DNA from: a bacterium
GTDB taxonomy: Bacteria; Patescibacteriota; Minisyncoccia; UBA11713; 2-01-FULL-45-33
Assembly (NCBI GenBank): GCA_030648495.1
Contig: JAUSHV010000045.1
Location: 1-54,804 of the forward strand
Direction: 5' to 3'
Length of the DNA stretch: 54,804 nucleotides
The translations under genes were made by a program, and so were the position numbers. Position 1 is the stretch's first letter, and every line of letters begins with the position of its first letter. Positions 1-42,359 of this stretch are shown in pieces. The notes under the pieces were generated by a model. The model made no database searches. It saw nothing but the letters and a program-made list of their open reading frames with translations, and had not been told where the DNA came from.

Positions 1-2698
1 AGCGCGAAATATCTTCCGTCACAAAATTTTCCAAATCGCGCGCCGCGCCGACGATATCATAGGCGTCCAGTTTTTCCGTGGCAACGCGGATTGTATCTTG
101 TAATTTTATTAGTACCCACTTATTTATTAAAAGCTTAGCGGAAATAACCCCCCTCACCCCCCTTACTTTAAGGGGGGCAACATTGTACATCTTATAGAAT
201 TGCAGAACATTCCAGAGTATCATGAAAAATCTGCGCGAAGCGTCTTTGACGTCGTCTTCTTTAAAAAGTTTTGAATCCCAGGGCTGGTTTATTGTAAAAA
301 AATACCAGCGCACCGAATCCGCCCCATATTTTTCTATCAAAGCCATCGGGTCGACAACGTTCCCCAAAGATTTAGACATTTTCTTGCCGTTTTTATCCAA
401 CACATGCCCCAACACCACAACATTTTTGTAAGGCGCGCTCTTTCCAAGAAGAGTGGAAACCGCCAAAAGCGTATAGAACCATCCTCGGGTCTGGTCGATG
501 GCCTCTACTATATAGTCCGCCGGAAAGCCCGAGGGCTTGCTCGCAAACGGCATCGCTCCGGAATCAAACCAAACATCGCAAACTTCCGGCACGCGCCTCA
601 TTACTCCCCCGCATGAACACCTGAGGGTAACGCCGTCGATGTAAGGCTTGTGAAGGTCCAAAATAAAATTCTCACCCCTCGGCAACTGTGGCATTTCCAA
701 AACGCTCCAACCGGCGGTCTTAAGAAAATCACGTTTACCGCCTTCTTTAGCCGCAACCGACTCTTCATAATTTTTACCAAGCGCGGCCGACCAGAGCATC
801 CATAAAGTATACTCGTGACTTATTATCAGAACCGTCTTATTCTTATATTGCGACTCTATTTCTTCAATAACTGCGAAAGTCCGCTTCTTTAAGTCATTTA
901 AAGTTTCTCCATTTGGCGGAGCTTTTTCGAATTTCTCAATTTCATTTTTATAAAACGAATGATATTTGACAGGCTTTCCTTCGGCAAAAATTCCCGTGTT
1001 AATCTCTCCCAAACGAACATCAAATTTTATATTTTTTTCGTCAACGTTAAATATTTTTGCCATTATTTCTGCTGTCTCCTTGGTGCGCAAAAATGGGGAC
1101 GCAATAATCAAATCAAATTTTATTTTTTTTGCCTTAATCGCTTTTGCGGTTTTTTGAACTTGTCCAATACCTTTTTTAGTTAACGGATATTTATTATTCT
1201 CCAGAGTACAATTTGTTACATGTTTTATATTGCTCAATGACTCACCATGCCGCATCATTATATATTTGTTGCGCGGAGGCGCTGATCGTTTTTGCATCTC
1301 GTCCTGTGAACCAATTACATCCCACTTCTCACATTTCTCGCATCTCCATACTGGCAAAGGCGTACCCCAATAGCGCTCTCTGGAGAAAGCCCAATTTTTC
1401 TTTTCTTTCAACCACTCACCGAATCTTCCCTCTTTTATATGTTCGGGGTGCCAGTTGATGGTTTCATTGTTTTCCAAAAGTTCTTTACGGACCTTATTAA
1501 CATCCACCCACCATGATTTTCTCGCAAAATACATTAAAGACGTTTTACACCTCCAGCAAAAAGGATAGTCGTGTTCGTAAGGCTCTTCTTTAAAAAGAAG
1601 GTTGCGCGACCTTAGGTCTTCTATAATAAGAGGGTCTGCTTTTTTAAAAAACGCTCCGTTCCAGGTCCATTCGGGAGCCTGCATAGTGCCTCGCTCGTCT
1701 ACAGTCAAAAGAACGGGCAAATTGTATTTTTTTCCGAGCCGAAAATCATCATCCCCAAATGCAGGCGCGATATGAACTATGCCTGTGCCGTCCTCGGCAG
1801 AAATAAAATCGCCCGCAACAATTTTATACGGAGCTTTATTGGAATATAAAGCGTCGTAACCTTCATCAATCAGCTCCTTGCCTTTCACTTTTTTTATTAC
1901 ACTATACCCTTCACCCAAAACACCGAGACGGGATTCGGCTAATATAAAAATTTCTTGCGAAAGATCGTTTTTGGCAAAACAATAATTTATTTGGGGATTC
2001 ACAGCCAAAGCAACGTTTCCGGGAAGCGTCCAGGGAGTCGTGGTCCAGACAAGATAAAATATTTTTACGTTTTTAGTCGGAAATTTTACATAGATGGAAT
2101 TGTCCTTCACTTTTTCGTAGCCCTGAGCAAGCTCGTGCGAAGAGAGCGCCGTCCCGCAACGCACGCACCAAGGCATAACCTTATAATCCTCATAGAGAAA
2201 ATTATTTTTTGCGAATTCTTTGATAATCGCCCACAAAGATTCAATATAAGAATTTTCGTAAGTAATATACGGACGCTCCATGTCTATCCAAAAACCCATC
2301 CGCGAAGTCAAACGTTCCCATAGGTCTTTGTATTGCCAAACCGATTCTTTGCATTTTTTGTTGAAAGCCGCCACGCCGTAGGCCTCGATCTCTTTTTTAT
2401 TTTTCAACCCCAAAACCTTTTCAACCTGTACCTCTACCGGCAAACCGTGCGTATCCCAACCTGCTCGGCGCGGGACAAAAAAGCCCTGCATGGTTTTGAA
2501 CCGCAAAATAATATCTTTAAAAACGCGCGTCTCAACATGCCCTATATGCGGGTTGCCGTTCGCTGTCGGAGGACCATCAAAAAAGATAAAACTTTTGGTT
2601 TTACCCCGACCTTCGCGTCGGGGCTTCCTTTGAAAAACAGACTTCTCAAAAATCTTATTTTTCTCCCAAAACTCCAGTATTTCCTTCTCATCAAACAT
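1..2698 (-). CDS. ileS: Isoleucyl-tRNA synthetase (type-2-like), first ~899 codons; the 3' end runs off the window
   Basis: Absent from the ORF track because it is open at the window edge. My reverse-complement translation from ATG 2698-2696 has no stop down to position 2. Motifs: MFDEKEILEFWEKNKIF..DGPPTANGNPHIGHV (HIGH), WTTTPWTLPGN, YPFCWRCKTSLMY, RERYWGTPLPVWRCEKC, DVWFDSGAMPF, GKKMSKSLGN (KMSKS). Confidence 0.9.
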   Translation of the reverse strand, partial: MFDEKEILEFWEKNKIFEKSVFQRKPRREGRGKTKSFIFFDGPPTANGNPHIGHVETRVFKDIILRFKTMQGFFVPRRAGWDTHGLPVEVQVEKVLGLKNKKEIEAYGVAAFNKKCKESVWQYKDLWERLTSRMGFWIDMERPYITYENSYIESLWAIIKEFAKNNFLYEDYKVMPWCVRCGTALSSHELAQGYEKVKDNSIYVKFPTKNVKIFYLVWTTTPWTLPGNVALAVNPQINYCFAKNDLSQEIFILAESRLGVLGEGYSVIKKVKGKELIDEGYDALYSNKAPYKIVAGDFISAEDGTGIVHIAPAFGDDDFRLGKKYNLPVLLTVDERGTMQAPEWTWNGAFFKKADPLIIEDLRSRNLLFKEEPYEHDYPFCWRCKTSLMYFARKSWWVDVNKVRKELLENNETINWHPEHIKEGRFGEWLKEKKNWAFSRERYWGTPLPVWRCEKCEKWDVIGSQDEMQKRSAPPRNKYIMMRHGESLSNIKHVTNCTLENNKYPLTKKGIGQVQKTAKAIKAKKIKFDLIIASPFLRTKETAEIMAKIFNVDEKNIKFDVRLGEINTGIFAEGKPVKYHSFYKNEIEKFEKAPPNGETLNDLKKRTFAVIEEIESQYKNKTVLIISHEYTLWMLWSAALGKNYEESVAAKEGGKRDFLKTAGWSVLEMPQLPRGENFILDLHKPYIDGVTLRCSCGGVMRRVPEVCDVWFDSGAMPFASKPSGFPADYIVEAIDQTRGWFYTLLAVSTLLGKSAPYKNVVVLGHVLDKNGKKMSKSLGNVVDPMALIEKYGADSVRWYFFTINQPWDSKLFKEDDVKDASRRFFMILWNVLQFYKMYNVAPLKVRGVRGVISAKLLINKWVLIKLQDTIRVATEKLDAYDIVGAARDLENFVTEDISR
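700..1290 (-). other. Histidine-phosphatase (PGAM-like) domain inserted inside ileS
   Basis: The insert lies between ..CEKCEKWDVIGSQDEM and LDLHKPYIDGVTLRCSCGGVMRRVPEV. The translation reads KYIMMRHGESLSN (RHGE motif), IASPFLRTKETAEI, PNGETLNDLKKRTFAVIEEI, TVLIISHEYTLWML (second His). Confidence 0.7.
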
Positions 2699-2749: not shown

Positions 2750-3154
2750 TCATTTCCAACGCATCACTATCTGCGCGGCAATCATGAGTAGAAACGCAAT
2801 TACAATCTTGGGAGATAGATTCAACTGGCCGCGATTAAAATATTCTGAAATTAAAAGAGCAACCGGATTGGCAAGCCATATTAACATAACAATGATTTTT
2901 ATATCAATATTGGCCAATGATTGCCGTACAATTGCCATATGGACAAGGTAGACCGCAGGATAAGCGACAAACATTGAAACAAAAGTAAAATAAGCTGTAT
3001 AAACCCACAGAGAATCTGTTTGCAGTCCAAGAAACTTCTTGGTGCCTGCTATGTCTATCAACCAAACAAAGATCTGATATAAAACAACATTGCCGACTAG
3101 CAGCATCAAAAAATCCAAAGACAAATTTTTCATTGAGCGCCAAAATCTCACCAA
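2750..3154 (-). CDS. Small multi-pass membrane protein, unknown function
   Basis: 134-aa ORF with about 4 hydrophobic segments, co-oriented with its neighbours. Confidence 0.5.
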   Translation of the reverse strand: MVRFWRSMKNLSLDFLMLLVGNVVLYQIFVWLIDIAGTKKFLGLQTDSLWVYTAYFTFVSMFVAYPAVYLVHMAIVRQSLANIDIKIIVMLIWLANPVALLISEYFNRGQLNLSPKIVIAFLLMIAAQIVMRWK

Positions 3155-3197
3155 ACATTAGCACGCCCAAACAAAAAAGCAATCGGTTAGGATTGCT

Positions 3198-3443
3198 TCA
3201 TACTATAAGAAAAATTTTAATACAGGTGATAAGTGTTGTGAGCAGAATAACTAAACAAAAGCCGGATAGCATCCAAAACAACTTAAGCTCAGGCTTATCT
3301 GTATAAAATGATGCGATAACAGCCAATGGCAGTGGTAATAAAGCAATATACCAAAATGCTATTAAAACTTTGGGAGATTCTTCTAAAATCAGCATGAGAA
3401 GCATTAAAAACCCAGCAAATCCGGTAGGATTAATGGCTGTCAT
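3198..3443 (-). CDS. Small membrane protein, unknown function
   Basis: ORF 3198-3521 trimmed to internal Met (MTAINPTGFAGFLMLLML..), which removes the overlap with the argS 3' end. Three hydrophobic segments. Confidence 0.4.
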   Translation of the reverse strand: MTAINPTGFAGFLMLLMLILEESPKVLIAFWYIALLPLPLAVIASFYTDKPELKLFWMLSGFCLVILLTTLITCIKIFLIV

Positions 3444-3498
3444 TTTCCATTGGCAAATCTTATCAAAGACTATCACAAGCAAGAAAAAAAGCAACCGC

Positions 3499-5094
3499 CT
3501 ACATCTTCTCGGGGGCGGCAATGCCCATCAAGGTAAGTGTTTGTTTTAGAGTTTTTTTGGTTGCCGAAACCAAAGCCAGGCGGGCTTGGGTTAGCTCTTT
3601 ATTTTTCGTATCTATCACTAAACATTTTTCATAAAAATTCGTAAAGGTTTGCGCGAGTTCGTAAACATATTTAGTGAGCCTGTGTGCTTGATAGTCATCG
3701 GTAATGTCTTCGATAATTTCGTGGAGCTGAAGTATTTTTTTGATGAGAGCCAGTTCTTCGGGCTTATCAAGAAGCATAAGGTCGGCTTTCTTGCCCGGCT
3801 TCCCTTTCCGTAAAATACTGCATGAACGCGCGTGCGCGTATTGAACATAATATACGGGATTTTTCTTGCTTCTTTCTTTTGCCAAATCCATATCAAAATC
3901 CATGTGGGTATTTGGGCTACGTTCCAAAAAGAACCACCTCGCGGCGTCTACCCCGACTTCTTTTAACAATTCATCCAAAGTCACAAACTCTCCGCTCCGC
4001 TTGGACATTTTTACTTCCTTTCCTCCTGAAATTAAACGAACAAGCTGCATGATAATAATTTGCAATCTAGCCGGCTCAACACCAATCGCCTCCACGCCTT
4101 TTTTCATGCGCTCTATATAGCCATGATGATCCGCTCCCCAAATATCTATTGCGATATCAAATTTTCTTTTCATAAATTTGTCATAATGATAGGCTAAATC
4201 AGCCAAAAAATAGGTTGACTCTTTATTGGACTTTATTACCACGGCATCTGCCAACCATAGAGCGCCTTCTTTTTCATGAAGAACTTTTTTCTTATTTAAA
4301 AATGTAAGGATTTTTTTTAGCTCGTTTTTTTTGTGCAAATTTTTGTCTTCCGAATACCAGACATCAAATTTTATTCCTGCTTTTATAAGAGATACTTTTA
4401 TTTCTTTAAGCAAACTCGCTGCCGCCTGCGCCGCCGTTTTTTCTTTTAATTTTTTGATGTATTCGCCCTTATAAAGCTCTTCGCGCGCGGGGATTTTTCC
4501 TTCCGCCGCCAAAATGGACTCGCCTAAAAGCTTTATCTGATTTCCGGCATCATTTATATAATATTCGCGAGTAACTTTGCGTCCAACAGCACTCAAAACA
4601 TTCGCGAGCGCATCGCCGTAAAATCCTCCTCGTCCATTTGCCATAGTTAAAGGCCCCGTCGGATTCGCTGAAATAAATTCTATGTTGATTTTTTTGCTAG
4701 TCTCGCGCTTTCCGTTTCGCTCGGTCTTAACCCTCTCTCCGGGGGCTCCGACGCCCTCGCGCTCCGAAAAACGCTCGCCTCTTCGCGAAAAAATCGAAAG
4801 GTTTTCGACTAAGGCCTCGCGCGCAATAAAAAAATTCAAAAAGCCTGGACCTGCGGATTCGATCCTTTCAATGATTTTTCCCAACTTGGGAGCTCGGCTT
4901 CCAAGCGTGGCTTTCATCCATTCCGCAACTTCTTTCGGTCCGCCAGCTGGCGGATTTCCAATTTTCTTAGCCAGCACCAAAGCAATGTTCGATGAATAAT
5001 CTCCATGCTCGGAGTTCTCCGGGCGTTCAACGGAAAAAACCGTGCCCTTTGGCACCAATTTTTCTATTTCTTCTCTAATTTGCGCGCGAAACAT
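3499..5094 (-). CDS. argS: Arginyl-tRNA synthetase
   Basis: 531 aa. Motifs: EFISANPTGPL, DIWGADHHGY, KMSKRSGEFVTLDELL, and a C-terminal anticodon-binding helix region ending ..GIAAPEKM. Confidence 0.9.
   Translation of the reverse strand: MFRAQIREEIEKLVPKGTVFSVERPENSEHGDYSSNIALVLAKKIGNPPAGGPKEVAEWMKATLGSRAPKLGKIIERIESAGPGFLNFFIAREALVENLSIFSRRGERFSEREGVGAPGERVKTERNGKRETSKKINIEFISANPTGPLTMANGRGGFYGDALANVLSAVGRKVTREYYINDAGNQIKLLGESILAAEGKIPAREELYKGEYIKKLKEKTAAQAAASLLKEIKVSLIKAGIKFDVWYSEDKNLHKKNELKKILTFLNKKKVLHEKEGALWLADAVVIKSNKESTYFLADLAYHYDKFMKRKFDIAIDIWGADHHGYIERMKKGVEAIGVEPARLQIIIMQLVRLISGGKEVKMSKRSGEFVTLDELLKEVGVDAARWFFLERSPNTHMDFDMDLAKERSKKNPVYYVQYAHARSCSILRKGKPGKKADLMLLDKPEELALIKKILQLHEIIEDITDDYQAHRLTKYVYELAQTFTNFYEKCLVIDTKNKELTQARLALVSATKKTLKQTLTLMGIAAPEKM
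4696..4795. repeat. Repeat family B copy, in frame inside argS
   Basis: 4727-4754 (ttaaccctctctccgggggctccgacgc) matches the reverse complement of 33651-33678 at 27 of 28 positions. Flanking blocks tctcgcgc and cgctcgcct are also shared. Visibly GC-richer than the rest of the gene. Confidence 0.8.
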
Positions 5095-9446: not shown

Positions 9447-9818
9447 TTATGCAAAAAAGTTTTTTATCTTCTCTACGATTTCCGCGACAGCATGGTTTGA
9501 TTTAACAAGATAATCGCCGGCTCCCAGCCGAAGACCCTTTTTTATATTTTCATCTTCTCCTAAAAGCGTGAGAATAATGACGGGGATGTTTTTGGTATCC
9601 GGAGATTTTTTCATTTCCTCCAATACTTCAAATCCGTGCTTTTTTGGCAAAATAAGGTCAAGTAATACTAAATCGGGTTTTTTGGACCTTGCCAATTCCA
9701 AACCTGCCTCACCATCAAACGCCTGTGATACGTCAAAACCCGCGTCAACAAGCTCCGCGCGAAGCACTTTAGAAAGCACCTCGTCATCTTCTATTAATGC
9801 TATTTTTATTTTACCCAT
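9447..9818 (-). CDS. Stand-alone response-regulator receiver domain
   Basis: 123 aa, CheY-like: IEDDEVL, LVLLDLILPKK, lysine in YLVKS. Confidence 0.85.
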   Translation of the reverse strand: MGKIKIALIEDDEVLSKVLRAELVDAGFDVSQAFDGEAGLELARSKKPDLVLLDLILPKKHGFEVLEEMKKSPDTKNIPVIILTLLGEDENIKKGLRLGAGDYLVKSNHAVAEIVEKIKNFFA

Positions 9819-10185
9819 TTAATTTTTCCTGAACTATTTTGACAATATCTTCAACTTTATAATCTGATTTTATAATATATTCATACACGCCGGCCTCAAC
9901 GGCGTCGGCCACCGGCGTTACTTTATCTAGCGCCGTAAGAATAATAATCGGGATATTTTTTGTTTCCGGATCAGCTTTCAGCTTTTTAGCCACAGTGATT
10001 CCGTCCATTTTTGGCATTAAAATATCCAAAAGAACAAGCGCCGGCTTCTTTGCAATAACCATGGCAAGCCCCTCTTCCCCGTCAAAAGCTCTTTCCACCA
10101 AAAACCCCGCGTCTTTTAATCCGCTATAAAGAGCATCTGATAAAATTTTGTCATCTTCTATTAAAGCTATTGTTGCGCTACTCAT
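9811..10185 (-). CDS. Stand-alone response-regulator receiver domain
   Basis: 124 aa: IEDDKIL, LVLLDILMPKMDG, YIIKS. Overlaps the next gene by 8 nt. Confidence 0.85.
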   Translation of the reverse strand: MSSATIALIEDDKILSDALYSGLKDAGFLVERAFDGEEGLAMVIAKKPALVLLDILMPKMDGITVAKKLKADPETKNIPIIILTALDKVTPVADAVEAGVYEYIIKSDYKVEDIVKIVQEKLNG

Positions 10186-10206
10186 ATGAATTAATGATAC
10201 TCCAAT

Positions 10207-11550
10207 TTATTCTCGTTGCAAAACCAATCCTTTTTCTCCGGCGCGGGGCTTTGTCGTGAGAGGAAGCTCGATAAAGAAAGCTGTGCCCTTCCCTTCTGTT
10301 GACTCAAACCAAATTTTCCCGCCCAAAAGATTTGCCGATTCCCGCACAATATACAATCCAAGCCCCGTGCCGTCCGGCTTTGAAATAACCGCGTTAGACG
10401 CGCGCATGAACTTTGCAAAAATACGCGCTTGCTCTCCTTTGGGTATTCCTATACCCGTATCCCTGACCGTAACAAATACGGAATCTTTCTTTTCTTCCAA
10501 TGATATCTCTACCTTCCCATTTGCGGGAGTGTAGCTAACGGAATTGGAAATAAGATTTTGTATAATATATCCAAATAGATTTTTATCCGTAACCGCAACA
10601 AGTTTTTCTGGATGCTTTGTAAAAACACACGATATCTTTCCCTTATCAAAGAGGGCCTGGTATTCGCGGATATAACCATTGATTAGCAGAACCAAATCTA
10701 AAGGCTCCGGCTGTATGACAACGCTGCCGGATTCAATGCGCGATACATTAAGCAAAAGTTTAATGAGCACGGAGAGCCGCTTCGCGGACAAATAAATATC
10801 ATTTAGGTATTCCGTGCCTTCCTTGGTTAATTTTTCTTTTTTTAAAAAAAGTTCAATAGTCCACTCAATGCCCGTGAGCGGCGTGCTGAGTTGATGCGAA
10901 GCAAGCGAAACAAATTCGCTTTTCGCGCGGTCCATTTCCTTTTCTTTAGTCATATCGGTAAATACGGCAACGCTTTCAACAAAGTTACCGTCTTCATCAA
11001 ATCTCGGGCTTGGCGAAGTTATCGTATCAATTTTCGACCCGTCCTTGCGCAACCAGGCAATTTCATAGCTTTTATGTTCTCCTTTTTTCCTTTTTTGCAT
11101 TTGCTCATGCAAAATTTTCCTATTTTCCTCATCAAACACCATTTCCGTTGGCTTGCCAAGCAACTCCTCTAAAGTATAGCCGAGCATTTCACAGCCGCGC
11201 CTGTTCATAAAAGTGATTGTTCCGTTTTTATCTTGTACTCCCAACCCCTCCTCCATTACTCCAACCAGATTGCGATACTTCTCCTCAGATTGTTTGATGA
11301 TTTTCTCTTCAGTCCAAATATCCTCCAAAACATTAAGGACAGCTATCTTCGTATTTTCCAAATCCTTTGTTTTTTCTTTGAGCGCAAAATTAGCTCCCTC
11401 CAACTTCTTGTAGAATTCTTTAAGAGTCTTCGCCGTCGTCGCCAACTTACGCCTGATACTTTCCTTCTCCTTCGCCGTCACTACCAGCTTTTTGACTTTG
11501 AGCTTGAGTGTTACATTCTTCGCTGCGGAAATATTCTTTTTTTTATCCAT
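10207..11550 (-). CDS. Soluble PAS-domain sensor histidine kinase
   Basis: Coiled-coil N-terminus, PAS domain, H-box FVSLASHQLSTPL, N/G boxes DTGIGIP and GTGLGLYIV. No TM segment seen. Confidence 0.85.
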   Translation of the reverse strand: MDKKKNISAAKNVTLKLKVKKLVVTAKEKESIRRKLATTAKTLKEFYKKLEGANFALKEKTKDLENTKIAVLNVLEDIWTEEKIIKQSEEKYRNLVGVMEEGLGVQDKNGTITFMNRRGCEMLGYTLEELLGKPTEMVFDEENRKILHEQMQKRKKGEHKSYEIAWLRKDGSKIDTITSPSPRFDEDGNFVESVAVFTDMTKEKEMDRAKSEFVSLASHQLSTPLTGIEWTIELFLKKEKLTKEGTEYLNDIYLSAKRLSVLIKLLLNVSRIESGSVVIQPEPLDLVLLINGYIREYQALFDKGKISCVFTKHPEKLVAVTDKNLFGYIIQNLISNSVSYTPANGKVEISLEEKKDSVFVTVRDTGIGIPKGEQARIFAKFMRASNAVISKPDGTGLGLYIVRESANLLGGKIWFESTEGKGTAFFIELPLTTKPRAGEKGLVLQRE

Positions 11551-11557
11551 CTTTGGC

Positions 11558-12082
11558 CTATTTTTTCAAGTCTTCGATTTCTTTTTTGAGTTCTACCATT
11601 TTTAATTCCCTCCCTATCATGGTTTTATTCAACAATTCCAACTCTTCGGTCCGGGCTTTTAGTTGCTCCTGAGCGCGTTTTAAATCGTTAACTTCTCCCA
11701 CTTTTTCGATATCACGAAAGACGCGTTTTACCGACAGCGCGAGACGAGTGAGATTATTCTTTAATATGTAATCGGACGCTCCACTTTCTATAATCATAAT
11801 TGCCTCTTCATCCTTCATTGCTCCGGTAACAAGAATTACGGGGCAACCGGGACACTTCTTTTTGACGATTCCGAGGGCCGAAAGACCGTCAAATCCGGGG
11901 AGTTTATAGTCCGAGAGAATTATGTCCGGCTTAAAAGTATCCAACGAGTCTGAAAAATCTTCTCTCGCCATAACAACCTTTGAGACGAATTTTAAACCGC
12001 CTTTCCGCAATTCGCGTTCCATCAATTCCGCGTCAGCCGGCTCATCTTCCAATATTAAAATTTTATATTCTTTAGCATCCAT
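11558..12082 (-). CDS. Response-regulator receiver with a C-terminal coiled-coil tail
   Basis: LEDEPADAEL, IILSDYKLPGFDG, YILKN, then ~50 aa of heptad-like sequence (KRAQEQLKARTEELELLNK..). Confidence 0.8.
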   Translation of the reverse strand: MDAKEYKILILEDEPADAELMERELRKGGLKFVSKVVMAREDFSDSLDTFKPDIILSDYKLPGFDGLSALGIVKKKCPGCPVILVTGAMKDEEAIMIIESGASDYILKNNLTRLALSVKRVFRDIEKVGEVNDLKRAQEQLKARTEELELLNKTMIGRELKMVELKKEIEDLKK

Positions 12083-12090
12083 TGAATTTA

Positions 12091-12555
12091 TCAGTCATCT
12101 GTGTGCGTAGACTTGTTCAAAACCATCCAATACAGACCGACTTGGGAAATGGCCGCGGCAAAATCATCAAATTTAATGGGCTTAATGACATAACTATTTA
12201 CCCCAAACTTGTAACTTTCTTTAAGGTCCACATTCTCCTTGGATGACGTTATTACGACAATCGGAATCTCTTTAGTGCGCTCATCAGCCTTCACCTTTTG
12301 CAAAACCTCCAGGCCGCTTACTTTGGGAAGTTTCAAGTCAAGCAGAATAACTTTTGGGTTTTTAGAACTAGCTGTCCGTTCAGCATATTTACCTGTGCCA
12401 AAAATAAATTCAAGCGCTTCTTCTCCGTCTTTGACTACATAAACTTGGTTGCCAAAATTATACTTCTTGAGCGTTCGCAGTATTAGCTCGACATCATTGG
12501 GATCATCTTCAACCAGCAATATATCGACCTCTTTAAAATTTGTATTTCTTTCCAT
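12091..12555 (-). CDS. Stand-alone response-regulator receiver domain
   Basis: [30 protein letters not shown]. Confidence 0.85.
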
Positions 12556-12603
12556 ATTTTTTAATATTTATTAATTTTTAATATTAAATTGATTATATCA
12601 TAC

Positions 12604-13716
12604 TCAATGCACGGCAGGTAATGTAAAATAAAATGTGGCGCCCTCATCAACCTTTCCTTCGGCCCACACCTTTCCATCATGTCTTTCCACAATGCGCTTA
12701 GTAATGGCGAGCCCGACACCGGTCCCCTCGTATGCTCCCCGGGCGTGTAACTGCTGAAAAATCTGAAAAAGCTTACCGACATACTGCATATCAAAACCGA
12801 CGCCGTTGTCTTTTATAGAGTAAACTGCCATGTTATTTTCAGTCTTACATCCTATATCAATTATAGCCTCTTCCCGTAATCTTGTAAATTTGATGGCGTT
12901 GGATAATAGATTCGCCCAAACCTGTCTCATGAGTATCGGGTCCACCTTGGCTCGCGGGAGTACTCCGAAGTTAACCGTTATTTTTCTTTCCGGCACGGAT
13001 TTTTTCAGCTCTTCAAATACTACTTTAGCCATATCACTCATTTCTATTTCTTGAGTTGTCATTGGTTGGCTCCCGGTACGGGAGAGGATGAGCAAATCAT
13101 CAATGAGCTTCTCCATCAAACTGATACTTTGCCCGATGACAGAAATAATCCGCTTTCCCTCATCGTCAAGCTTGGGAGTATACTCTTCAACTAAAATCTT
13201 AGAGAAGCCATCTATTGCCCTAAGCGGTGCCCGCAAGTCGTGAGACACGGAGTAAGTAAATGCTTCCAAATCCTTCCTGGATTTATCTACTTCATTCGCT
13301 ATTTTATTGCGCTTCGTTATATCCCGTATATTGCATTGAATCGTCTTTACCGTACCGACAGAATATACACTACTCACGAACTCAACCTCAATCTCTTGAC
13401 CGTCTTTTGTCAGAAGCGGCAAACTTTCATGCCGAATAGATCCTTTAAATTGCAATTCTTCAAAAAGTACTTTGGCGGATTGAATATCTCTGAAAGTCCC
13501 AATTTCCCAAAACTTTTTCCCTATGATTTCGTCCAGAGAGTATCCAAGCACTCCCAACAAATGGGCATTGGCATCAATAATCTTTTCTGTTTTGAAATCA
13601 ATTAATAATATTCCGTCTTCTGCTGTATCGAAAAGCTTCCTATAGCGCTCTTCGGCAATAGCGATTTTTTTGAAATCTTCTAACTCGCTTTGTTTAACTT
13701 TGTTATTTTTCAACAA
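12604..13716 (-). CDS. Soluble PAS-domain sensor histidine kinase
   Basis: PAS domain, H-box FTYSVSHDLRAPL, DNGVGFD, GTGVGLAI. No TM segment. Confidence 0.85.
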   Translation of the reverse strand: MLKNNKVKQSELEDFKKIAIAEERYRKLFDTAEDGILLIDFKTEKIIDANAHLLGVLGYSLDEIIGKKFWEIGTFRDIQSAKVLFEELQFKGSIRHESLPLLTKDGQEIEVEFVSSVYSVGTVKTIQCNIRDITKRNKIANEVDKSRKDLEAFTYSVSHDLRAPLRAIDGFSKILVEEYTPKLDDEGKRIISVIGQSISLMEKLIDDLLILSRTGSQPMTTQEIEMSDMAKVVFEELKKSVPERKITVNFGVLPRAKVDPILMRQVWANLLSNAIKFTRLREEAIIDIGCKTENNMAVYSIKDNGVGFDMQYVGKLFQIFQQLHARGAYEGTGVGLAITKRIVERHDGKVWAEGKVDEGATFYFTLPAVH

Positions 13717-14369: not shown

Positions 14370-14399
14370 AGCCTTATTATGTCTCTTTTTTTTGTTTTG

Positions 14400-14749
14400 T
14401 GGAAGTGCCGGGAATCGAACCCGGGTCGGAAAAGTTTGAATTCGGCGGTTGACAAGCTTAGTTGCTCAGCGTTAGCCAAGACTTTTGCCCTTATTCAAAT
14501 GTTAAGGCGGGCTTATTTAACATTGCCTCGCTAATATTACACCCGGATTCTTCTTAGCGAGAATCAAAAGACCGGATGCCTACGCGTTAAGCGTAAGAAG
14601 TGGCAAGCTGCATTGGCGAACCAAAAACAGCAGCTACTTTTTTAAATAAGTTTGCACTTATTGTGTTGTGAAGATAATTTTAAGAGCGAGCTTCACATAC
14701 TCTGCCTGAACGCGTGAAACCGTACTCTTCCTCGAGGCCGATCACTCCC
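14400..14749 (-). ncRNA. ssrA: tmRNA (SsrA)
   Basis: Minus-strand 5' GGGAGUG pairs with 3' CACUUCC-A, giving a 7-bp acceptor stem with a G3-U wobble. T-arm CCGGG-UUCGAUU-CCCGG. Internal tag ORF GCA AAC .. TAC GCT TAA = ANLFKKVAAVFGSPMQLATSYA*. CCA is not encoded. smpB is adjacent. Confidence 0.85.
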
Positions 14750-27428: not shown

Positions 27429-28001
27429 TTAAACTTTAATTAATTTTTCTTTTTTTATAAGTTCGATAACCTTTCCAACCAAACGCTTCGGGTCAGTATC
27501 ATAAACAATGTTCCCCGGGCCTCTTTTTGATTTTTCAATTATATCTTTAATTACATCTGTTGAGCCGCCGGAACCGTCTAAAACTCCTATTGGCTTTCCG
27601 TCCTCAAGCGCAATTGTAAATTCATTGATAGTTCCCCATCTGCCACAGCCGACTATCACAGCGTCTGCCGATTTTACCAAAAGCAAATTTCTGCCCGAAT
27701 ACCCGAAGCCTGTATAAATAATAATATCCATATAATCCACAGGCAGAAGATAATGTTCTAGATGCTCTTTTTCCGAACCTGCGGGAGAAATTCCGATGTT
27801 AAAACCTCCGGCTTCTTTAGCGCCGATTGCCGCCCAATAAGGAAAGCCTGTCGTGGCGCCATTTACCAAGACAGCACCGTTTTTGACGATTTCACTCCCC
27901 AAGATCTTGGCTTTATCTAGCGCATCCGGCGCACAATGCCCCGTCTCGGCCGCCCCAGAGACGCAAATCTTGTATTTAAGATGTATATGCTGATTGTCCA
28001 T
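27429..28001 (-). CDS. LOG/SLOG-type Rossmann protein (TIGR00725-like)
   Basis: ICVSGAAETG, LVNGATTGFPYWAA, VGCGRWGTINEF. Confidence 0.6.
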   Translation of the reverse strand: MDNQHIHLKYKICVSGAAETGHCAPDALDKAKILGSEIVKNGAVLVNGATTGFPYWAAIGAKEAGGFNIGISPAGSEKEHLEHYLLPVDYMDIIIYTGFGYSGRNLLLVKSADAVIVGCGRWGTINEFTIALEDGKPIGVLDGSGGSTDVIKDIIEKSKRGPGNIVYDTDPKRLVGKVIELIKKEKLIKV

Positions 28002-37928: not shown

Positions 37929-38927
37929 CTATTTCCTTAAAATTTTAGCGGCCTCTTCCGGAGAAACCTTGACAATATCAATGCCCGCGCCCAATTCCAG
38001 TCCTCCCCAAATCGCCAGCCGCGGCAATATTTCCATGTGCCAATGATAATGCTTTTCATTTTCTTTTTTCGGCGGAGCAGTATGGATGAAAAAATTATAA
38101 TCAGGATTTTTGAGATTTTTATAAATTCTTCTGAAAACAACATGCATCGCGTCCGCAAGGTCTTTTTTCCGGCTTTCATCGATGATTTCAAATCTAGACT
38201 CATGATTTTTGGGGAATATTCTTATCTCGTAAGAGACTTTTGAGGCGTACGGCGCAATTACGGCGAAAGATTTATTTTGATAAATTATTCTTATTTTCTC
38301 TTTCATTTCCGATTTGAGCATATCGCAATGCACGCATCTCTTTGTGTTTGCAAAATATCTTCTGGAGCCTTCTAGGCTATTTGCCACATCTGGCGGAATA
38401 ATCGGCAAAGCAAAAATTTGTGAGTGAGGATGAGGCACAGAAGCCCCGGCTCGCGGACCGGAATTGTGTAAAATCAAAATAAATTCCATGCACGGCGCGG
38501 CTCTTAACGCCTGGTAGCGTAAAATATACGATTCTAAAATAATTTCGATTTCATCTTTATCCATTAATCCGAACGGCTTCATGTGGTCGCGCATAATGAC
38601 AAGCTCCTGAAATCCGTTTCCCGGAGTGGATTCATAGAGACCGCGCTTTATTACAGGCACGCAAGTCTTATTGGTTATGACTACCGGATATTTATTTTCG
38701 TACACTCTTACCAACCAGTCTTTCGCGTCGGCTTTTCCTTTCTTGGGCAACCAAAGCAAATTCTTGCCTTGTTCAGACTGGACGATGTTTTCGAACGGAC
38801 ACTTCGACTTGGGAAGCGCCTTAGTTGGTTCGCGAGTAAAAAACATCGGTTTTTTTGATTTTTGCGCGGAAATTAAAACCCAGTCACCGGAAACAAGGTC
38901 TTTTCTGAATTCAATTATTTTATTCAT
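37929..38927 (-). CDS. galT: Galactose-1-phosphate uridylyltransferase-like HIT-family enzyme
   Basis: KCPFE plus VPHPHSQIFALP (HxHxQ). Confidence 0.75.
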   Translation of the reverse strand: MNKIIEFRKDLVSGDWVLISAQKSKKPMFFTREPTKALPKSKCPFENIVQSEQGKNLLWLPKKGKADAKDWLVRVYENKYPVVITNKTCVPVIKRGLYESTPGNGFQELVIMRDHMKPFGLMDKDEIEIILESYILRYQALRAAPCMEFILILHNSGPRAGASVPHPHSQIFALPIIPPDVANSLEGSRRYFANTKRCVHCDMLKSEMKEKIRIIYQNKSFAVIAPYASKVSYEIRIFPKNHESRFEIIDESRKKDLADAMHVVFRRIYKNLKNPDYNFFIHTAPPKKENEKHYHWHMEILPRLAIWGGLELGAGIDIVKVSPEEAAKILRK

Positions 38928-39680: not shown

Positions 39681-40433
39681 CTATACTTTTGTTAGAACTT
39701 CCACGCCGTTTTTTGTGACTACCATTGTATGTTCAAAATGTGCCGAGCGGGAGCCGTCGCGGGTGAGCCATGTCCAGCCGTCTTTTGCGAGTTTTACTTT
39801 AAAATTGCCCTCTGTAGCCATAGGCTCGATAGCTATAACCTCTCCTTCACGGAGCTCCGGCCCGTCGCCGCGATGCCCCCAATTTGGTATCTCGGGCTCC
39901 TCGTGAACGGCGCTTCCAACGCCGTGGCCCACAAGTTCACGAACCACGCCGAAGTCTTCTTTTTCTAAACATTGCTGTATTGCAAATCCTATGTCGCCGA
40001 CTCTCACGCCGACACGGACTTGGGCAATTCCGATTTCCAAAGATTTTTTTGTTACATCAATTAATTTATTTTTACCGCCTCCTACTAAAAGCGTCATCGC
40101 GGTGTCCGTAAATAATCCATCGTACCGCATTCCGATATCCAATCCGACCACGTCGCCATTTTTCAAAGCTCGGCCATTTGGTATCCCGTGCACAACCTCT
40201 TCATTTATAGATACGCAAAGAGTTCCGGGATATGCTGTTGGAGCTCCGTAAACTTTGTATCCTTTAAACGACGGCTTGCCGCCTACTTTTAAAATTAATT
40301 TTTCTGCAAGTTCATCTAATTCTTTTGTTGTAACCCCTTCTTTGGCGGCCTCCGAAACCTCAACCAAAATAGCGGCAAGTCGCTTGCCGCCATCCCGCAA
40401 AATTTCAAGTTCTTTTTTATTTTTGATTATCAT
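39681..40433 (-). CDS. map: Methionine aminopeptidase type I
   Basis: VVHGIPN, DIGMRYDG, GHGVGSAVHEEP, IAIEPM. Confidence 0.92.
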   Translation of the reverse strand: MIIKNKKELEILRDGGKRLAAILVEVSEAAKEGVTTKELDELAEKLILKVGGKPSFKGYKVYGAPTAYPGTLCVSINEEVVHGIPNGRALKNGDVVGLDIGMRYDGLFTDTAMTLLVGGGKNKLIDVTKKSLEIGIAQVRVGVRVGDIGFAIQQCLEKEDFGVVRELVGHGVGSAVHEEPEIPNWGHRGDGPELREGEVIAIEPMATEGNFKVKLAKDGWTWLTRDGSRSAHFEHTMVVTKNGVEVLTKV

Positions 40434-41095
40434 AAATTCAATGCTTTTATGATGTCTTTATGGGTATCTTCAATAGATTGTTCGCCGTTGATAATTTTTA
40501 CCCTGTGCAGGCCTTCAATGAATTTTATGGCCGGAACTGTTTTCTGGGCATACTCATCAGTCCGCATCTGAAGCACTTCTTTTTGGTCAAGATCGCGGGT
40601 CTCCAAAACGCCGTCTCCCTCGGGGCATTTTGTCCCCGGTGTAAAAACATCTGAACGGATATAAACATGCCTGCTGTCGCGGTTGCATATGAGCCGCTTC
40701 TCCACTCTTCTTTTGAACTCGTCCACGCTTATTTCTATCAACAATACGTAAACATTTTCTTTGCCCAATAATTTAACAACCTCAGGGAAAACGGCTTTGG
40801 CTTCGTATAATGTCCGCGGCGTCCCGTCATATATAATACCCTTAGCCGTTTTTATAATTTCTCGGGTCTTCTCCAATACTACGCGTGTAGTCCATTCAGC
40901 CTCAAAAAGCTTACCTGTCTTATAAAGCTCTACCTGCCGCTTTGTTTGTTCGTCATCATGGCTATTTATGTATTCTTTGCCCTCGCGGCTCGTAGTAAAA
41001 TGGTAAAAACCCATTTTCTCCGCCAAAATTTTAGCTTGAGTTCCTTTGCCGGAAGCGGGACGACCAAAAAGAAAAATAGCGACTTTTTTATCCAT
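40430..41095 (-). CDS. adk: Adenylate kinase
   Basis: GRPASGKGTQA P-loop. Trimmed to MDKKVAIFLFG. Sits in the secY-adk-map context. Confidence 0.85.
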   Translation of the reverse strand: MDKKVAIFLFGRPASGKGTQAKILAEKMGFYHFTTSREGKEYINSHDDEQTKRQVELYKTGKLFEAEWTTRVVLEKTREIIKTAKGIIYDGTPRTLYEAKAVFPEVVKLLGKENVYVLLIEISVDEFKRRVEKRLICNRDSRHVYIRSDVFTPGTKCPEGDGVLETRDLDQKEVLQMRTDEYAQKTVPAIKFIEGLHRVKIINGEQSIEDTHKDIIKALNL

Positions 41096-41096
41096 A

Positions 41097-42359
41097 TTAT
41101 TCGTACGCGCGAAGGGAAATCTGGCCTTCAATTTGTTTGGCGGTCTCCAAAACTACGGAGACGACGATAAGAAGCGAGGTTCCTCCAATTGTAAGAGTGG
41201 TAATGCCAGTTGCTCCCTGCAAAAGCGACGGCATGACGGCGATTATTCCCAAAAACAAAGCTCCTGCAAGCGTGATGCGGCTCACTATCTTGTAAAGATA
41301 TTCTGCCGTATTGCGCCCGGGGCGGATGCCCGGCACAAATGCCCCGCTTTTTTGCAAATTAGTAGAAATGGCGCTTGGATCAAAAGTTACGAAAGTATAA
41401 AAATATGTAAATAGAAAAACCAGAATAAAATAGCCCAAAGCATGGTACCAATTATTAGCCAGAAAACCCAGGACAAAAGAAGATATGTTTTTAAGAATGA
41501 AATTTGAAGAGCCCGACAAAAAATTGGCTACCATCTGAGGAAGAAGCAAAATGGACAACGCAAAAATTATCGGAATAACTCCGGCTTGATTGACCCGCAA
41601 AGGCAAATAAGTAGTCGAGCCGCCGTACATGCGCATTCCCCTTACACGCTTCGCGTAGTAAACGGGAATAGGCCGCTCTCCCTCCGATATTACGATTACT
41701 GCGGCGATTGTGATAAGCGCAACGGCCAAAAAAGCAATGAGCGTCGGTAACTGCGATGGATCATAAGCTATCAGCGTTTGACGCGCGTCAGACGGAAAAC
41801 TTGCCACGATACCGGCAAAAATTATTATAGACACTCCGTTGCCGACCGAATACTCGGATATCAATTCTCCTATCCACATTAGGAGAATTGACCCGGCCGC
41901 GACTATAAGGAGGCTACCTAAGCGTTGAGACAAAGTAAAATGAAAGATTCCCTGCCGCTCAAAAATAGTTAAAAGCGCAAATCCCTGGACCAAAGCCAGA
42001 GGAAAAGTAAGTATTCTTGAATATTGGTTGAATTTTTGCCGACCGGCTTCGCCCTCTTCCTGATAAAGTTCTTTTAAACGCGGAATCATCATGGTCAAAA
42101 GCTGCATTATAATTGAGCCCGTAATGTAAGGGCCTACTCCCAGCATGACTATTGAAAGATTCGAAAGACCTCCGCCAGAAAAAACATTGAGCAGGCCGAA
42201 TAGCTGGTTTGCGGCAAAAAATTGCTTTAATTTATCGGCGTCTATTCCCGGTACGGGGATGGAAGCGCATAACCGAAACACCGCTAAAAACAGCAAAAGA
42301 TATAAGAATTTTTTGCGGAGGTCCTTGTCTTGAAAAATCAGCTTAGCTTTGTCCCACAT
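41097..42359 (-). CDS. secY: Preprotein translocase subunit SecY
   Basis: 420 aa, 10 TM segments, GVGPYITGSIIMQLL. Confidence 0.93.
   Translation of the reverse strand: MWDKAKLIFQDKDLRKKFLYLLLFLAVFRLCASIPVPGIDADKLKQFFAANQLFGLLNVFSGGGLSNLSIVMLGVGPYITGSIIMQLLTMMIPRLKELYQEEGEAGRQKFNQYSRILTFPLALVQGFALLTIFERQGIFHFTLSQRLGSLLIVAAGSILLMWIGELISEYSVGNGVSIIIFAGIVASFPSDARQTLIAYDPSQLPTLIAFLAVALITIAAVIVISEGERPIPVYYAKRVRGMRMYGGSTTYLPLRVNQAGVIPIIFALSILLLPQMVANFLSGSSNFILKNISSFVLGFLANNWYHALGYFILVFLFTYFYTFVTFDPSAISTNLQKSGAFVPGIRPGRNTAEYLYKIVSRITLAGALFLGIIAVMPSLLQGATGITTLTIGGTSLLIVVSVVLETAKQIEGQISLRAYE

Follow-up and report, generated by a model that had tools for sequence, protein, structure and literature searches.

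At the left edge of contig JAUSHV010000045.1, from a tiny-genome bacterium of the Parcubacteria (GenBank assembly GCA_030648495.1), analysed here as a window that comprises the whole 54,804-nucleotide (nt) stretch, lies ileS, a gene for a type-2 isoleucyl-tRNA synthetase (IleRS) within which a complete histidine-phosphatase domain is nested. Amino acid (aa) numbers refer to the product of this ileS open reading frame (ORF); L labels denote loci and P labels denote proteins. Translation of the minus strand yielded 899 codons without a stop, from the ATG at 2698-2696 down to base 2. Because the frame runs past the left window edge, the ORF does not appear in the supplied gene track, an omission that a preliminary description of the sequence had correctly remarked upon, along with the continuity of the frame and the intactness of both synthetase halves (HIGH and KMSKS are carried by one uninterrupted frame). 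The edge removes the C terminus, i.e., ~230-350 aa as judged from full-length insert-bearing relatives of 1128-1255 aa; Anticodon_1 and DUF5915 are present in this region of the full-length relatives. The features of the gene, including those of its connective peptides (CPs), are as follows.

1..2698, minus strand: ileS, type-2 isoleucyl-tRNA synthetase (start ATG 2698-2696; TIGR00392; best PDB match 1ILE)
2537..2548, minus strand: HIGH signature of the class I catalytic domain, aa 51-54 (read from the translation)
1562..2122, minus strand: CP1 editing domain, ~aa 193-379, with WTTTPWT and GTGIVH (aligns with editing-domain structures 1WK8/1WNY)
1274..1378, minus strand: N-terminal half of CP3, with SRERYWGTPLPVW, the Cys pair C453/C456 and the helix VIGSQDEMQKRS (aligns with 1ILE 447-483)
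662..1273, minus strand: predicted nested branch-1 histidine phosphatase with its linkers, aa 476-679 (Pfam, structure model, Foldseek, conservation and substitution rates)
761-1261, minus strand: Pfam core of the phosphatase, His_Phos_1, aa 480-646
581..661, minus strand: C-terminal half of CP3, with LDLHKPYIDGVTLRCSCGG and the Cys pair C694/C696 (aligns with 1ILE 488-510 and with insert-less IleRS)
368..382, minus strand: KMSKS signature, aa 773-777 (read from the translation)

The synthetase and the domain within its CP3

The gene product was assigned to type-2 IleRS by its score against the NCBIfam ileS equivalog TIGR00392 (770.9 bits versus a cut-off of 621.4, despite the absent C terminus), together with the HIGH and KMSKS signatures and a CP1 editing domain bearing WTTTPWT and GTGIVH. 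More specifically, Pfam tRNA-synt_1 matched the 899-aa product at E=5e-108 in two separate stretches, Thermus thermophilus IleRS (1ILE) was the best PDB match (E=8e-218), and models of MupA/MupB-type IleRS scored the protein at 661-686 bits. Alignment to 1ILE placed window aa 4-475 on residues 14-483 and aa 680-898 on residues 488-716; thus, ~204 residues (aa 476-679, nt 662-1273) stand in place of a 4-residue loop. CP3 is the connective peptide that leads from CP2 into the Rossmann fold's second half (PMC7191050, PMC11685878), and in T. thermophilus IleRS it contains a zinc motif (PMC7191050). The loop in question lies between the Cys pairs C453/C456 and C694/C696 of this zinc-binding CP3, flanked by RERYWGTPLPVW.CEKC (aa 440-456) and DLHKPYID...CSCGG (aa 681-698). 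As the loop belongs to the CP3 zinc knuckle, the insert is peripheral in the catalytic fold and outside its core strands. The preliminary description had placed about 170 extra residues between the CEKC and DLHKPYID motifs, in the catalytic core; extra residues are indeed there and within the catalytic fold, but they number ~200 (204) and occupy a peripheral subdomain rather than the Rossmann core proper.

Our profile and structure searches identified the insert as a histidine phosphatase. His_Phos_1 (PF00300) matched aa 480-646 at E=5.3e-27, with 95.2 bits against a gathering threshold of 21.7 and coverage of profile positions 2-165 of 194. An AlphaFold2 (AF2) model of the insert, based on an alignment of 76 homologues, reached a mean predicted local distance difference test score (pLDDT) of 95.2 and a predicted template modelling score (pTM) of 0.92. 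Foldseek searches of the PDB with this model returned branch-1 histidine phosphatases alone (template modelling [TM] scores of 0.68-0.75, 18-24% identity); for the best matches (4IJ5/4IJ6, 6S2Q and 4PZA), the probability was 1.0, with TM scores of 0.72-0.75 and root-mean-square deviations of 2.7-3.0 Å. The nearest solved folds were metal-independent phosphoserine phosphatase PspA, glucosyl-3-phosphoglycerate phosphatase Rv2419c, a riboflavin-pathway phosphatase, CobC and PhoE. All of the hallmark motifs listed in the preliminary description were found in the translation, namely, MRHGESLSN (aa 482-490), SPFLRTKETAE (with R538), GETLNDLKKR (aa 597-606) and IISHEYTL (with H628). The catalytic set comprises R483, H484, R538, E565 (the acid) and H628. 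The profile score, the R-H-R-E-H residues and the superposable alpha/beta fold thus all place the insert in branch 1, which bears out the fold proposed at the outset, and the model portrays it as a complete, independently folding domain. In the full-length AF2 model, the phosphatase block had pLDDT values of 95-98 and both junctions 86-96, and because of these junction values the connections to IleRS are suggested to be short and ordered rather than a floppy tether; pTM of this model was 0.62, with the N-terminal 160 residues resting on a shallow alignment.

Conservation is what would be expected of a working enzyme. In an alignment of 302 domains guided by hidden Markov models, none of the 139 embedded copies departed from the Arg-His-Arg-His set, which 162-163 of the 163 free copies also have; the position of E565, the general acid, was Glu or Asp in 137/139 embedded copies. 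In five close Azambacteria pairs, the ratio of nonsynonymous to synonymous substitution rates (dN/dS) was as low for the insert (values given as 0.06-0.12 and 0.10-0.13) as for the rest of IleRS (0.065-0.126); in the window's own lineage, the insert gains amino-acid and nonsynonymous changes ~2x faster than the IleRS core. Catalytic residues and purifying selection therefore match those of an apparently active phosphatase, and the earlier impression that the domain looks active is supported at the level of sequence, R483, H484, R538 and H628 being retained in every embedded copy under selection like that on IleRS.

The label "PGAM-like" that came with that impression suits the fold and not the family of cofactor-dependent phosphoglycerate mutases (dPGM; NF038349, TIGR01258 and kindred equivalogs). 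Assignment to the latter was rejected on scores of 77.6 against 225 bits for dPGM_arch, 46.4 against 261 for GpmB, and 32-34 against >300 for the other dPGM models. CobC (60.3/162.9 bits), PspA (47.6/350) and SixA (40.4/74.5) were likewise below their NCBIfam equivalog cut-offs, as they also were for the stand-alone relatives described below. With all of these cut-offs missed, the insert is a member of the superfamily outside its characterised families.

Spread of the nested form and its stand-alone counterpart

The architecture recurs well beyond the window. When 5.8 billion proteins were searched through a word index, with aa 430-730 as the query, ~28 clusters emerged in which PF00133 and PF00300 occur together, under the names Nealsonbacteria, Paceibacterota, Sungbacteria and Patescibacteria. 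A scan of GTDB species representatives recovered the insert as an unbroken ~900-nt match in 26 loci from ~24 genomes, labelled Giovannonibacteria, Azambacteria, Nealsonbacteria, Sungiibacteriota, Harrisonbacteria and Parcubacteria. Across both junctions, the window shares 36-70% identity with insert-bearing metagenome-assembled genomes (MAGs) that come from separate assemblies and different studies, the junction positions are identical throughout the alignment of insert-bearing IleRS, and ORF lengths differ (1128-1255 aa with the insert versus 938-1077 aa without it). When the insert by itself was run exhaustively with HMMER against 1.84 billion 50%-identity representatives, 561 matches fell below 1e-10; most of the long proteins among the best 150 were IleRS carrying the domain at the window's site, and ~90 of these 150 representatives have the phosphatase there.

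These data bear directly on whether the nested domain could be an artefact, i.e., a chimera made during assembly, a pseudogene with a frameshift, or a selfish element that, like an intein, is absent from the mature protein. Such a suspicion is fed by the origin of the observation in one window, by the GC content of the insert (0.32-0.37, below the 0.42-0.53 of its flanks and inside the range of the remaining window), and by the nearest ileS relative (L001:4645-6936, 80% identity in the N-terminal part), in which the ORF is broken after 764 aa, just past the phosphatase; that break may reflect a frameshift, a misassembly or a gene that is truly split. Against it, matching junctions recur across 24+ assemblies made independently and hundreds of proteins from metagenomes, the reading frame is unbroken, and dN/dS is ~0.1. 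A Pfam scan of the product gave no Hint/intein or endonuclease match, and the junctions, ...KRSAPPRNKY... and ...PRGENFILDLHKPY..., have no splice residues of the Cys/Ser...His-Asn type. Chimera, pseudogene and intein are thus effectively refuted by the repeated junctions, the continuous frame, dN/dS and the lack of splice residues, and we assign an artefact a negligible probability; the finding survives the check for a chimera that the preliminary description had called for, since the unbroken ORF repeats in 24+ independently assembled MAGs.

Approximately one-third of the best 150 matches to the insert were short proteins, 185-210 aa long, whose genes have a start and a stop of their own (MKLNNKYF.LRHG...TGE.R.LN). 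A profile built from twenty of these stand-alone copies matched 2521 proteins, essentially all of them single-domain and ~190 aa long. For seven stand-alone copies, picked across subclades and sources, we checked the genomic place; in all seven cases, argS precedes the gene, an insert-less ileS (947-987 aa) follows it directly, and recO comes next. The spacing from phosphatase to ileS in these contigs was -4, +2, +5, +1, -4, +141 and +9 nt, the stop codon of the free phosphatase often overlapping the ileS start. The corresponding part of the window contains the following.

3499..5094, minus strand: argS, arginyl-tRNA synthetase, 531 aa (Pfam Arg_tRNA_synt_N, tRNA-synt_1d and DALR_1; synteny with L001-L024 and L063-L073)
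2750..3521, minus strand: two small hydrophobic ORFs of 134 and 107 aa in the interval between argS and ileS (ORF list)

On the minus strand, the window therefore reads argS (5094..3499) and then ileS, as in the argS-(phosphatase)-ileS-recO block, and the insert-bearing loci L001-L024 retain argS upstream and recO downstream. The two small ORFs occupy the place where relatives carry the stand-alone phosphatase; they had no Pfam match, tblastn showed no phosphatase similarity, and they may not be real genes. Neither a second phosphatase gene nor a remnant of one was found in the window or in the flanks (up to 6 kb) of insert-bearing ileS genes. Insert-less ileS genes of Uhrbacteria, Chloroflexi and others (L027-L062) had no phosphatase nearby, and the argS/recO synteny is absent from them. 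With synteny kept and the separate gene absent when the insert is present, each encoding excludes the other in this lineage of shared gene order.

In an unbootstrapped neighbour-joining tree computed from IleRS after masking of the phosphatase, the seven synthetases that accompany a free gene formed one clade among the insert-bearing ones, sister to a Nealsonbacteria sequence (L016), and the free phosphatases were closest to embedded copies from Nealsonbacteria (45-49% identity). The agreement of the IleRS tree with the phosphatase similarities indicates that phosphatase and synthetase were inherited together. A neighbour-joining tree of the 302 phosphatase domains, also unbootstrapped, contained 30 state changes between free and embedded; the position of the free-gene clade in the IleRS tree hints that the embedded state may be older than the free gene. 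The domain is thus a phosphatase subfamily specific to Parcubacteria and co-inherited with ileS, encoded either as a ~190-aa gene 5' of ileS or as a domain within it.

Further insertion sites and host proteins

The subfamily is not confined to one loop of IleRS. Insertion sites, assigned by five sequence landmarks, were as follows.

Site A: between SRxRxWGxPxP and DLHxPxxD, within CP3; the window and others, 136 sequences
Site B: between WFESGSMPYA and DQTRGWF; P0184, P0249, P0242, P0256 and the second copy in P0205
Site C: right behind the second Cys pair, between DLHxPxxD and DxWFxSG; the first copy in P0205
Site D: ~70 residues past KMSKS; the second copies in P0242 and P0256

Proteins with sites B, C and D belong to a more divergent IleRS lineage, and some of them carry two phosphatase copies; the P0242 cluster was located on a 1.06-Mb contig of a small-genome organism (L068:6001-10260). 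A further host is a metagenomic valyl-tRNA synthetase (ValRS) of 1161 aa (P0204; 380-411 bits with valS models), which has four phosphatase copies, one after SPQWF and three in tandem after HRIPVWY, i.e., at the position equivalent to CP3. Complete copies at the additional IleRS sites and in ValRS retain all of the catalytic residues. In P0249, an IleRS of 1406 aa, a GNAT domain (aa 606-690) and the phosphatase (aa 723-891) share the loop between WFESG and DQTRGWF; this protein and the existence of an ileS_w_GNAT model mark that region of IleRS as a hot spot for enzymatic insertions.

End-to-end fusions were also detected. In one arginyl-tRNA synthetase (ArgRS; P0247, L067:6001-8070), the phosphatase forms the C terminus and recO follows directly; ileS is gone from between argS and recO at this locus, and the phosphatase has remained with argS. 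Four clusters (52-65% identity) join the phosphatase end to end with TsaC, a t6A enzyme, and the fused gene (L069/L070) lies near genes for CCA-adding enzyme, tRNA-guanine transglycosylase, queuosine salvage and TruD. The commonest fusion partner of TsaC in Patescibacteria (P0129, P0388-P0504) is an Ogt-type DNA-binding domain (PF01035); further partners are TruB, 2H/cyclic phosphodiesterase, NUDIX, GNAT, purine DNA glycosylase and the present phosphatase. Since the loss of a stop codon cannot produce nesting, the nested insertions are the stronger evidence.

Fusions of this kind raise the question of whether the phosphatase is a passenger, i.e., a small-molecule phosphatase with a housekeeping role (resembling phosphoserine, sugar-phosphate or mutase-type enzymes) that came to lie between argS and ileS by chance, was captured by its neighbours through read-through or local duplication or rearrangement in the deletion- and fusion-prone genomes of the candidate phyla radiation (CPR), and was kept for an activity of its own. 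The gene order in 7/7 contigs fits, as ArgRS and IleRS fusions then join immediate neighbours; so do the frequent, mixed fusions of these bacteria (TsaC with the Ogt-type DNA-binding domain, TruB, NUDIX and GNAT; IleRS with GNAT), the metabolic phosphatases that are the nearest solved relatives, the GC content of the insert below that of its flanks (0.32-0.37), and its ~2x faster evolution than the core in the window's lineage. However, stop loss cannot account for nesting, which occurs at at least four IleRS sites in two divergent lineages and in ValRS, whose gene has no known adjacency to the phosphatase; the free gene stays adjoined to ileS after a switch of state, often with overlapping stop and start codons; and scores fall short of the equivalog cut-offs of metabolic enzymes (dPGM_arch 77.6/225, CobC 60.3/162.9, PspA 47.6/350). 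A Parcubacterium has moreover been found to use cofactor-independent phosphoglycerate mutase (PGM; PMC5220378), which also speaks against a captured mutase-like enzyme. Taken together, we hold capture of a passenger to be unlikely.

We instead consider it probable that the phosphatase serves the synthetase as a dedicated partner and, in effect, as a subunit, because the two encodings are mutually exclusive, the phylogenies agree, and four different IleRS loops as well as ValRS have acquired the subfamily in independent events. The combination of a conserved neighbour gene with recurrent nested insertions in IleRS and ValRS strengthens this functional tie.

Candidate roles, related systems and other genes of the window

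The roles that the preliminary description had put forward as inference, i.e., action on a phosphorylated nucleotide or tRNA end, or regulation, stay conjectural. The best overall explanation that we can offer, and we offer it tentatively, is that a nested, co-inherited phosphatase partners IleRS and acts in cis on a ligand held by the synthetase. The leading option for the substrate is a synthetase-bound macromolecule, most plausibly a tRNA with a 2'/3'-phosphate on its terminal ribose, an identification that is possible and still doubtful. This option is favoured because tethering pays greatly only for a bound macromolecule, the insertion site can vary, and all of the hosts are tRNA-pathway enzymes. 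The fusions to ArgRS and TsaC, the latter encoded near tRNA-processing genes, and the short, confidently modelled junctions also count in its favour. In the proposed mechanism, H484 would attack the phosphomonoester of the held ligand to form a phospho-histidine, with E565 serving as the general acid. The ligand would most probably be a tRNA whose terminal ribose is blocked by a 2'/3'-phosphate stemming from damage, nuclease attack or a toxin, and removal of the phosphate would give back the 2'/3'-OH that IleRS needs for acylation, thereby coupling end-healing to charging. The tRNA-end hypothesis draws on a functional analogy with the HD domain of CCA-adding enzymes, to which the removal of 2',3'-cyclic or terminal phosphates and the repair of tRNA 3' ends are ascribed (PMC10673834), and which so provides a precedent. 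A wider proposition, which we regard as rather improbable, is that charging in Parcubacteria and relatives includes a new step, in which the phosphatase, whether nested in the class Ia enzymes IleRS and ValRS or serving as their subunit, strips a blocking 2'/3'-(pyro)phosphate (or acts on another synthetase-bound phospho-ligand) immediately before aminoacylation; end-healing would then be a form of proofreading integrated in the synthetase, possibly as a defence against tRNA-targeting toxins.

Several observations weigh against a cis-acting partner that heals tRNA ends. The nearest solved relatives (PspA, GpgP, CobC, HFP and PhoE; 18-24% identity) are small-molecule phosphatases, and we know of no RNA-end-healing member of the histidine-phosphatase superfamily. 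A tRNA-end phosphatase is to be expected beside any synthetase or CCA-adding enzyme, which leaves the specific tie to ileS unexplained. Tandem active copies, four in ValRS, suggest catalytic dosage, so a small abundant substrate fits better than tRNA. Surface charge, taken as a proxy for RNA binding, favours neither side: median net charge is +17 for free versus +2 for embedded copies, but the neighbouring proteome is basic as well, and the individual free copies examined range from -1 to +27. The IleRS and phosphatase trees are neighbour-joining trees without bootstrap, and the fusions of TsaC are so varied that end-to-end fusions carry little functional weight here.

The dosage argument and the nature of the hosts lead to a second account, in which the phosphatase hydrolyses pyrophosphate (PPi), AMP, 2'/3'-nucleotides or adenosine polyphosphates that arise from the adenylation chemistry of its hosts, tethering securing stoichiometric co-expression with the most ATP-hungry, editing synthetases. 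All four hosts (IleRS, ValRS, ArgRS and TsaC) turn ATP into an acyl-adenylate and PPi, the nested sites gather in the second half of the Rossmann fold near the DxWFDSG and DQTRGWF strands of the ATP site, several intact copies in one protein suggest dosage, and the structural neighbours are small-molecule phosphatases, including CobC, which acts on the nucleotide-like alpha-ribazole-5'-phosphate. Yet a freely diffusing small molecule gains little kinetically from tethering, site D and the C-terminal fusion point of ArgRS are far from the active site, and hydrolysis of AMP would be wasteful in a purine auxotroph with adenylate kinase (window 40430-41131, recognised by eye). To our knowledge, no branch-1 histidine phosphatase has a documented pyrophosphatase (PPase) activity, and at least one Parcubacterium has an H+-PPase (PMC5220378), which also counts against this account. 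For a soluble PPase, an Escherichia coli Ppa query had no match in 839 kb of loci, a negative limited to ~10 kb per genome. We judge removal of such by-products, with tethering for co-expression, to be somewhat unlikely.

A third account holds that the domain is a protein phosphatase or regulator, which dephosphorylates the synthetase (e.g., on or near the KMSKS loop) or a partner, and thereby counters HipA-type kinase toxins or tunes charging. The superfamily does include the protein phosphatases SixA, PGAM5 and Sts-1, and kinase toxins do strike class I synthetases (HipA acts on GltX, HipT on TrpS); in addition, the insert matches the SixA model weakly (40.4 bits), and the nested sites lie at most about 150 residues from KMSKS. 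That match nevertheless misses the SixA cut-off of 74.5, no kinase gene was seen in the examined neighbourhoods of the phosphatase gene, C-terminal fusions to ArgRS and TsaC are ill-suited to a role directed at KMSKS, and no phosphorylation of IleRS is known, which makes this account very improbable. The gene content of the window included no ppa, PGM or kinase gene that points to a substrate.

Compared with known systems, the partner proposed here for IleRS combines familiar elements in an unfamiliar way. The small branch-1 phosphatases PspA of H. thermophilus (4IJ5), GpgP of M. tuberculosis (Rv2419c, 4PZA), CobC (6E4B/6NRU), PhoE of G. stearothermophilus (1H2E) and HFP (9MMH) share its fold (TM 0.68-0.75), a size of ~200 aa and the R-H-R-E-H residues, but they are free-standing metabolic enzymes of 18-24% identity with no genetic tie to a tRNA synthetase. 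CP1, CP2, CP3 and the leucine-specific domain of LeuRS are likewise whole domains nested in a loop of the Rossmann catalytic domain, the insert sitting inside CP3; CP1, in contrast, is universal and hydrolyses mis-acylated aminoacyl esters, whereas the insert is a predicted phosphomonoesterase that is lineage-restricted and interchangeable with a separate gene. The HD domain of CCA-adding enzymes (E. coli Cca and M. tuberculosis Rv3907c; PMC10673834) also joins a phosphatase/phosphodiesterase to an enzyme of the tRNA 3' end, but its metal-dependent fold is unrelated, it is fused C-terminally, and its activity has been shown experimentally, whereas the insert is known from sequence and model.

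NF040702 (ileS_w_GNAT) shows that an IleRS with an additional enzyme lodged inside it has been catalogued before, although the inserted enzyme is a different one; membership of the window IleRS in that family was rejected (317.1 bits versus a cut-off of 1999, with no acetyltransferase family match). In the bifunctional RNase H/acid phosphatase (NF005567, Rv2228c type), a CobC-like histidine phosphatase is joined to a nucleic-acid enzyme, but end to end, in Actinobacteria and with another partner, and the insert scores 57.5 bits against its 326-bit cut-off. Another histidine-phosphatase-fold domain on tRNA-related machinery belongs to the tau55/Tfc7 subunit of yeast TFIIIC, a eukaryotic transcription factor.

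Our literature searches turned up no account of a phosphatase within IleRS or next to it, and such a domain is absent from a 2026 preprint on IleRS domain evolution; public annotation displays the pairing of PF00133 with PF00300 in proteins named merely "class I tRNA ligase family protein". Taken singly, the phosphatase fold, IleRS as a family and domain nesting in class Ia synthetases are established. What appears to be new is a lineage-specific second enzyme within a synthetase, catalytically intact as judged from its residues, with an interchangeable subunit form. Synthetases are highly conserved, and bacterial cases of an unrelated second catalytic domain inside the catalytic fold are rare; the known ones are editing domains, each of which exposed a new quality-control step. 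While a large CPR clade diversified, the phosphatase remained tied to ileS, alternating between neighbour gene and nested domain, and this long association, with the repeated insertion, argues for an unrecognised removal of phosphate coupled to tRNA charging in minimal genomes. If the tRNA end is the substrate, translation would include a previously unseen step of repair or proofreading; if a nucleotide by-product is, the case would show minimal cells wiring energy metabolism to translation. Even if neutral, the case would be a clean natural interconversion of gene and nested domain in an essential enzyme, and the tolerance of CP3 for a 200-residue insertion is useful for synthetase engineering.

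Elsewhere in the window, we noted the following features.

9447-13716, minus strand: signalling run of four receiver-domain-like and two PAS/histidine-kinase-like ORFs (by eye from translations)
14397-14749, minus strand: tmRNA gene (Rfam RF00023, 100.5 bits; ARAGORN tag peptide ANLFKKVAAVFGSPMQLATSYA)
27432-28001, minus strand: SLOG cluster-4 protein (LDcluster4, PF18306; E=8e-36)
37932-38927, minus strand: GalT/HIT-superfamily protein (GalP_UDP_transf 3e-9, HIT 2e-7, weak Ap4A-phosphorylase N-domain 0.004)

The signalling cluster appears rather large for a small-genome bacterium. The GalT/HIT gene adjoins ORFs that resemble tpiA and pgk, as judged from their translations, and its product could be a nucleotidyl-transferase or a phosphorylase acting on adenylylated compounds. 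SLOG cluster-4 proteins are nucleotide- or ligand-binding domains that often occur in conflict or signalling systems.

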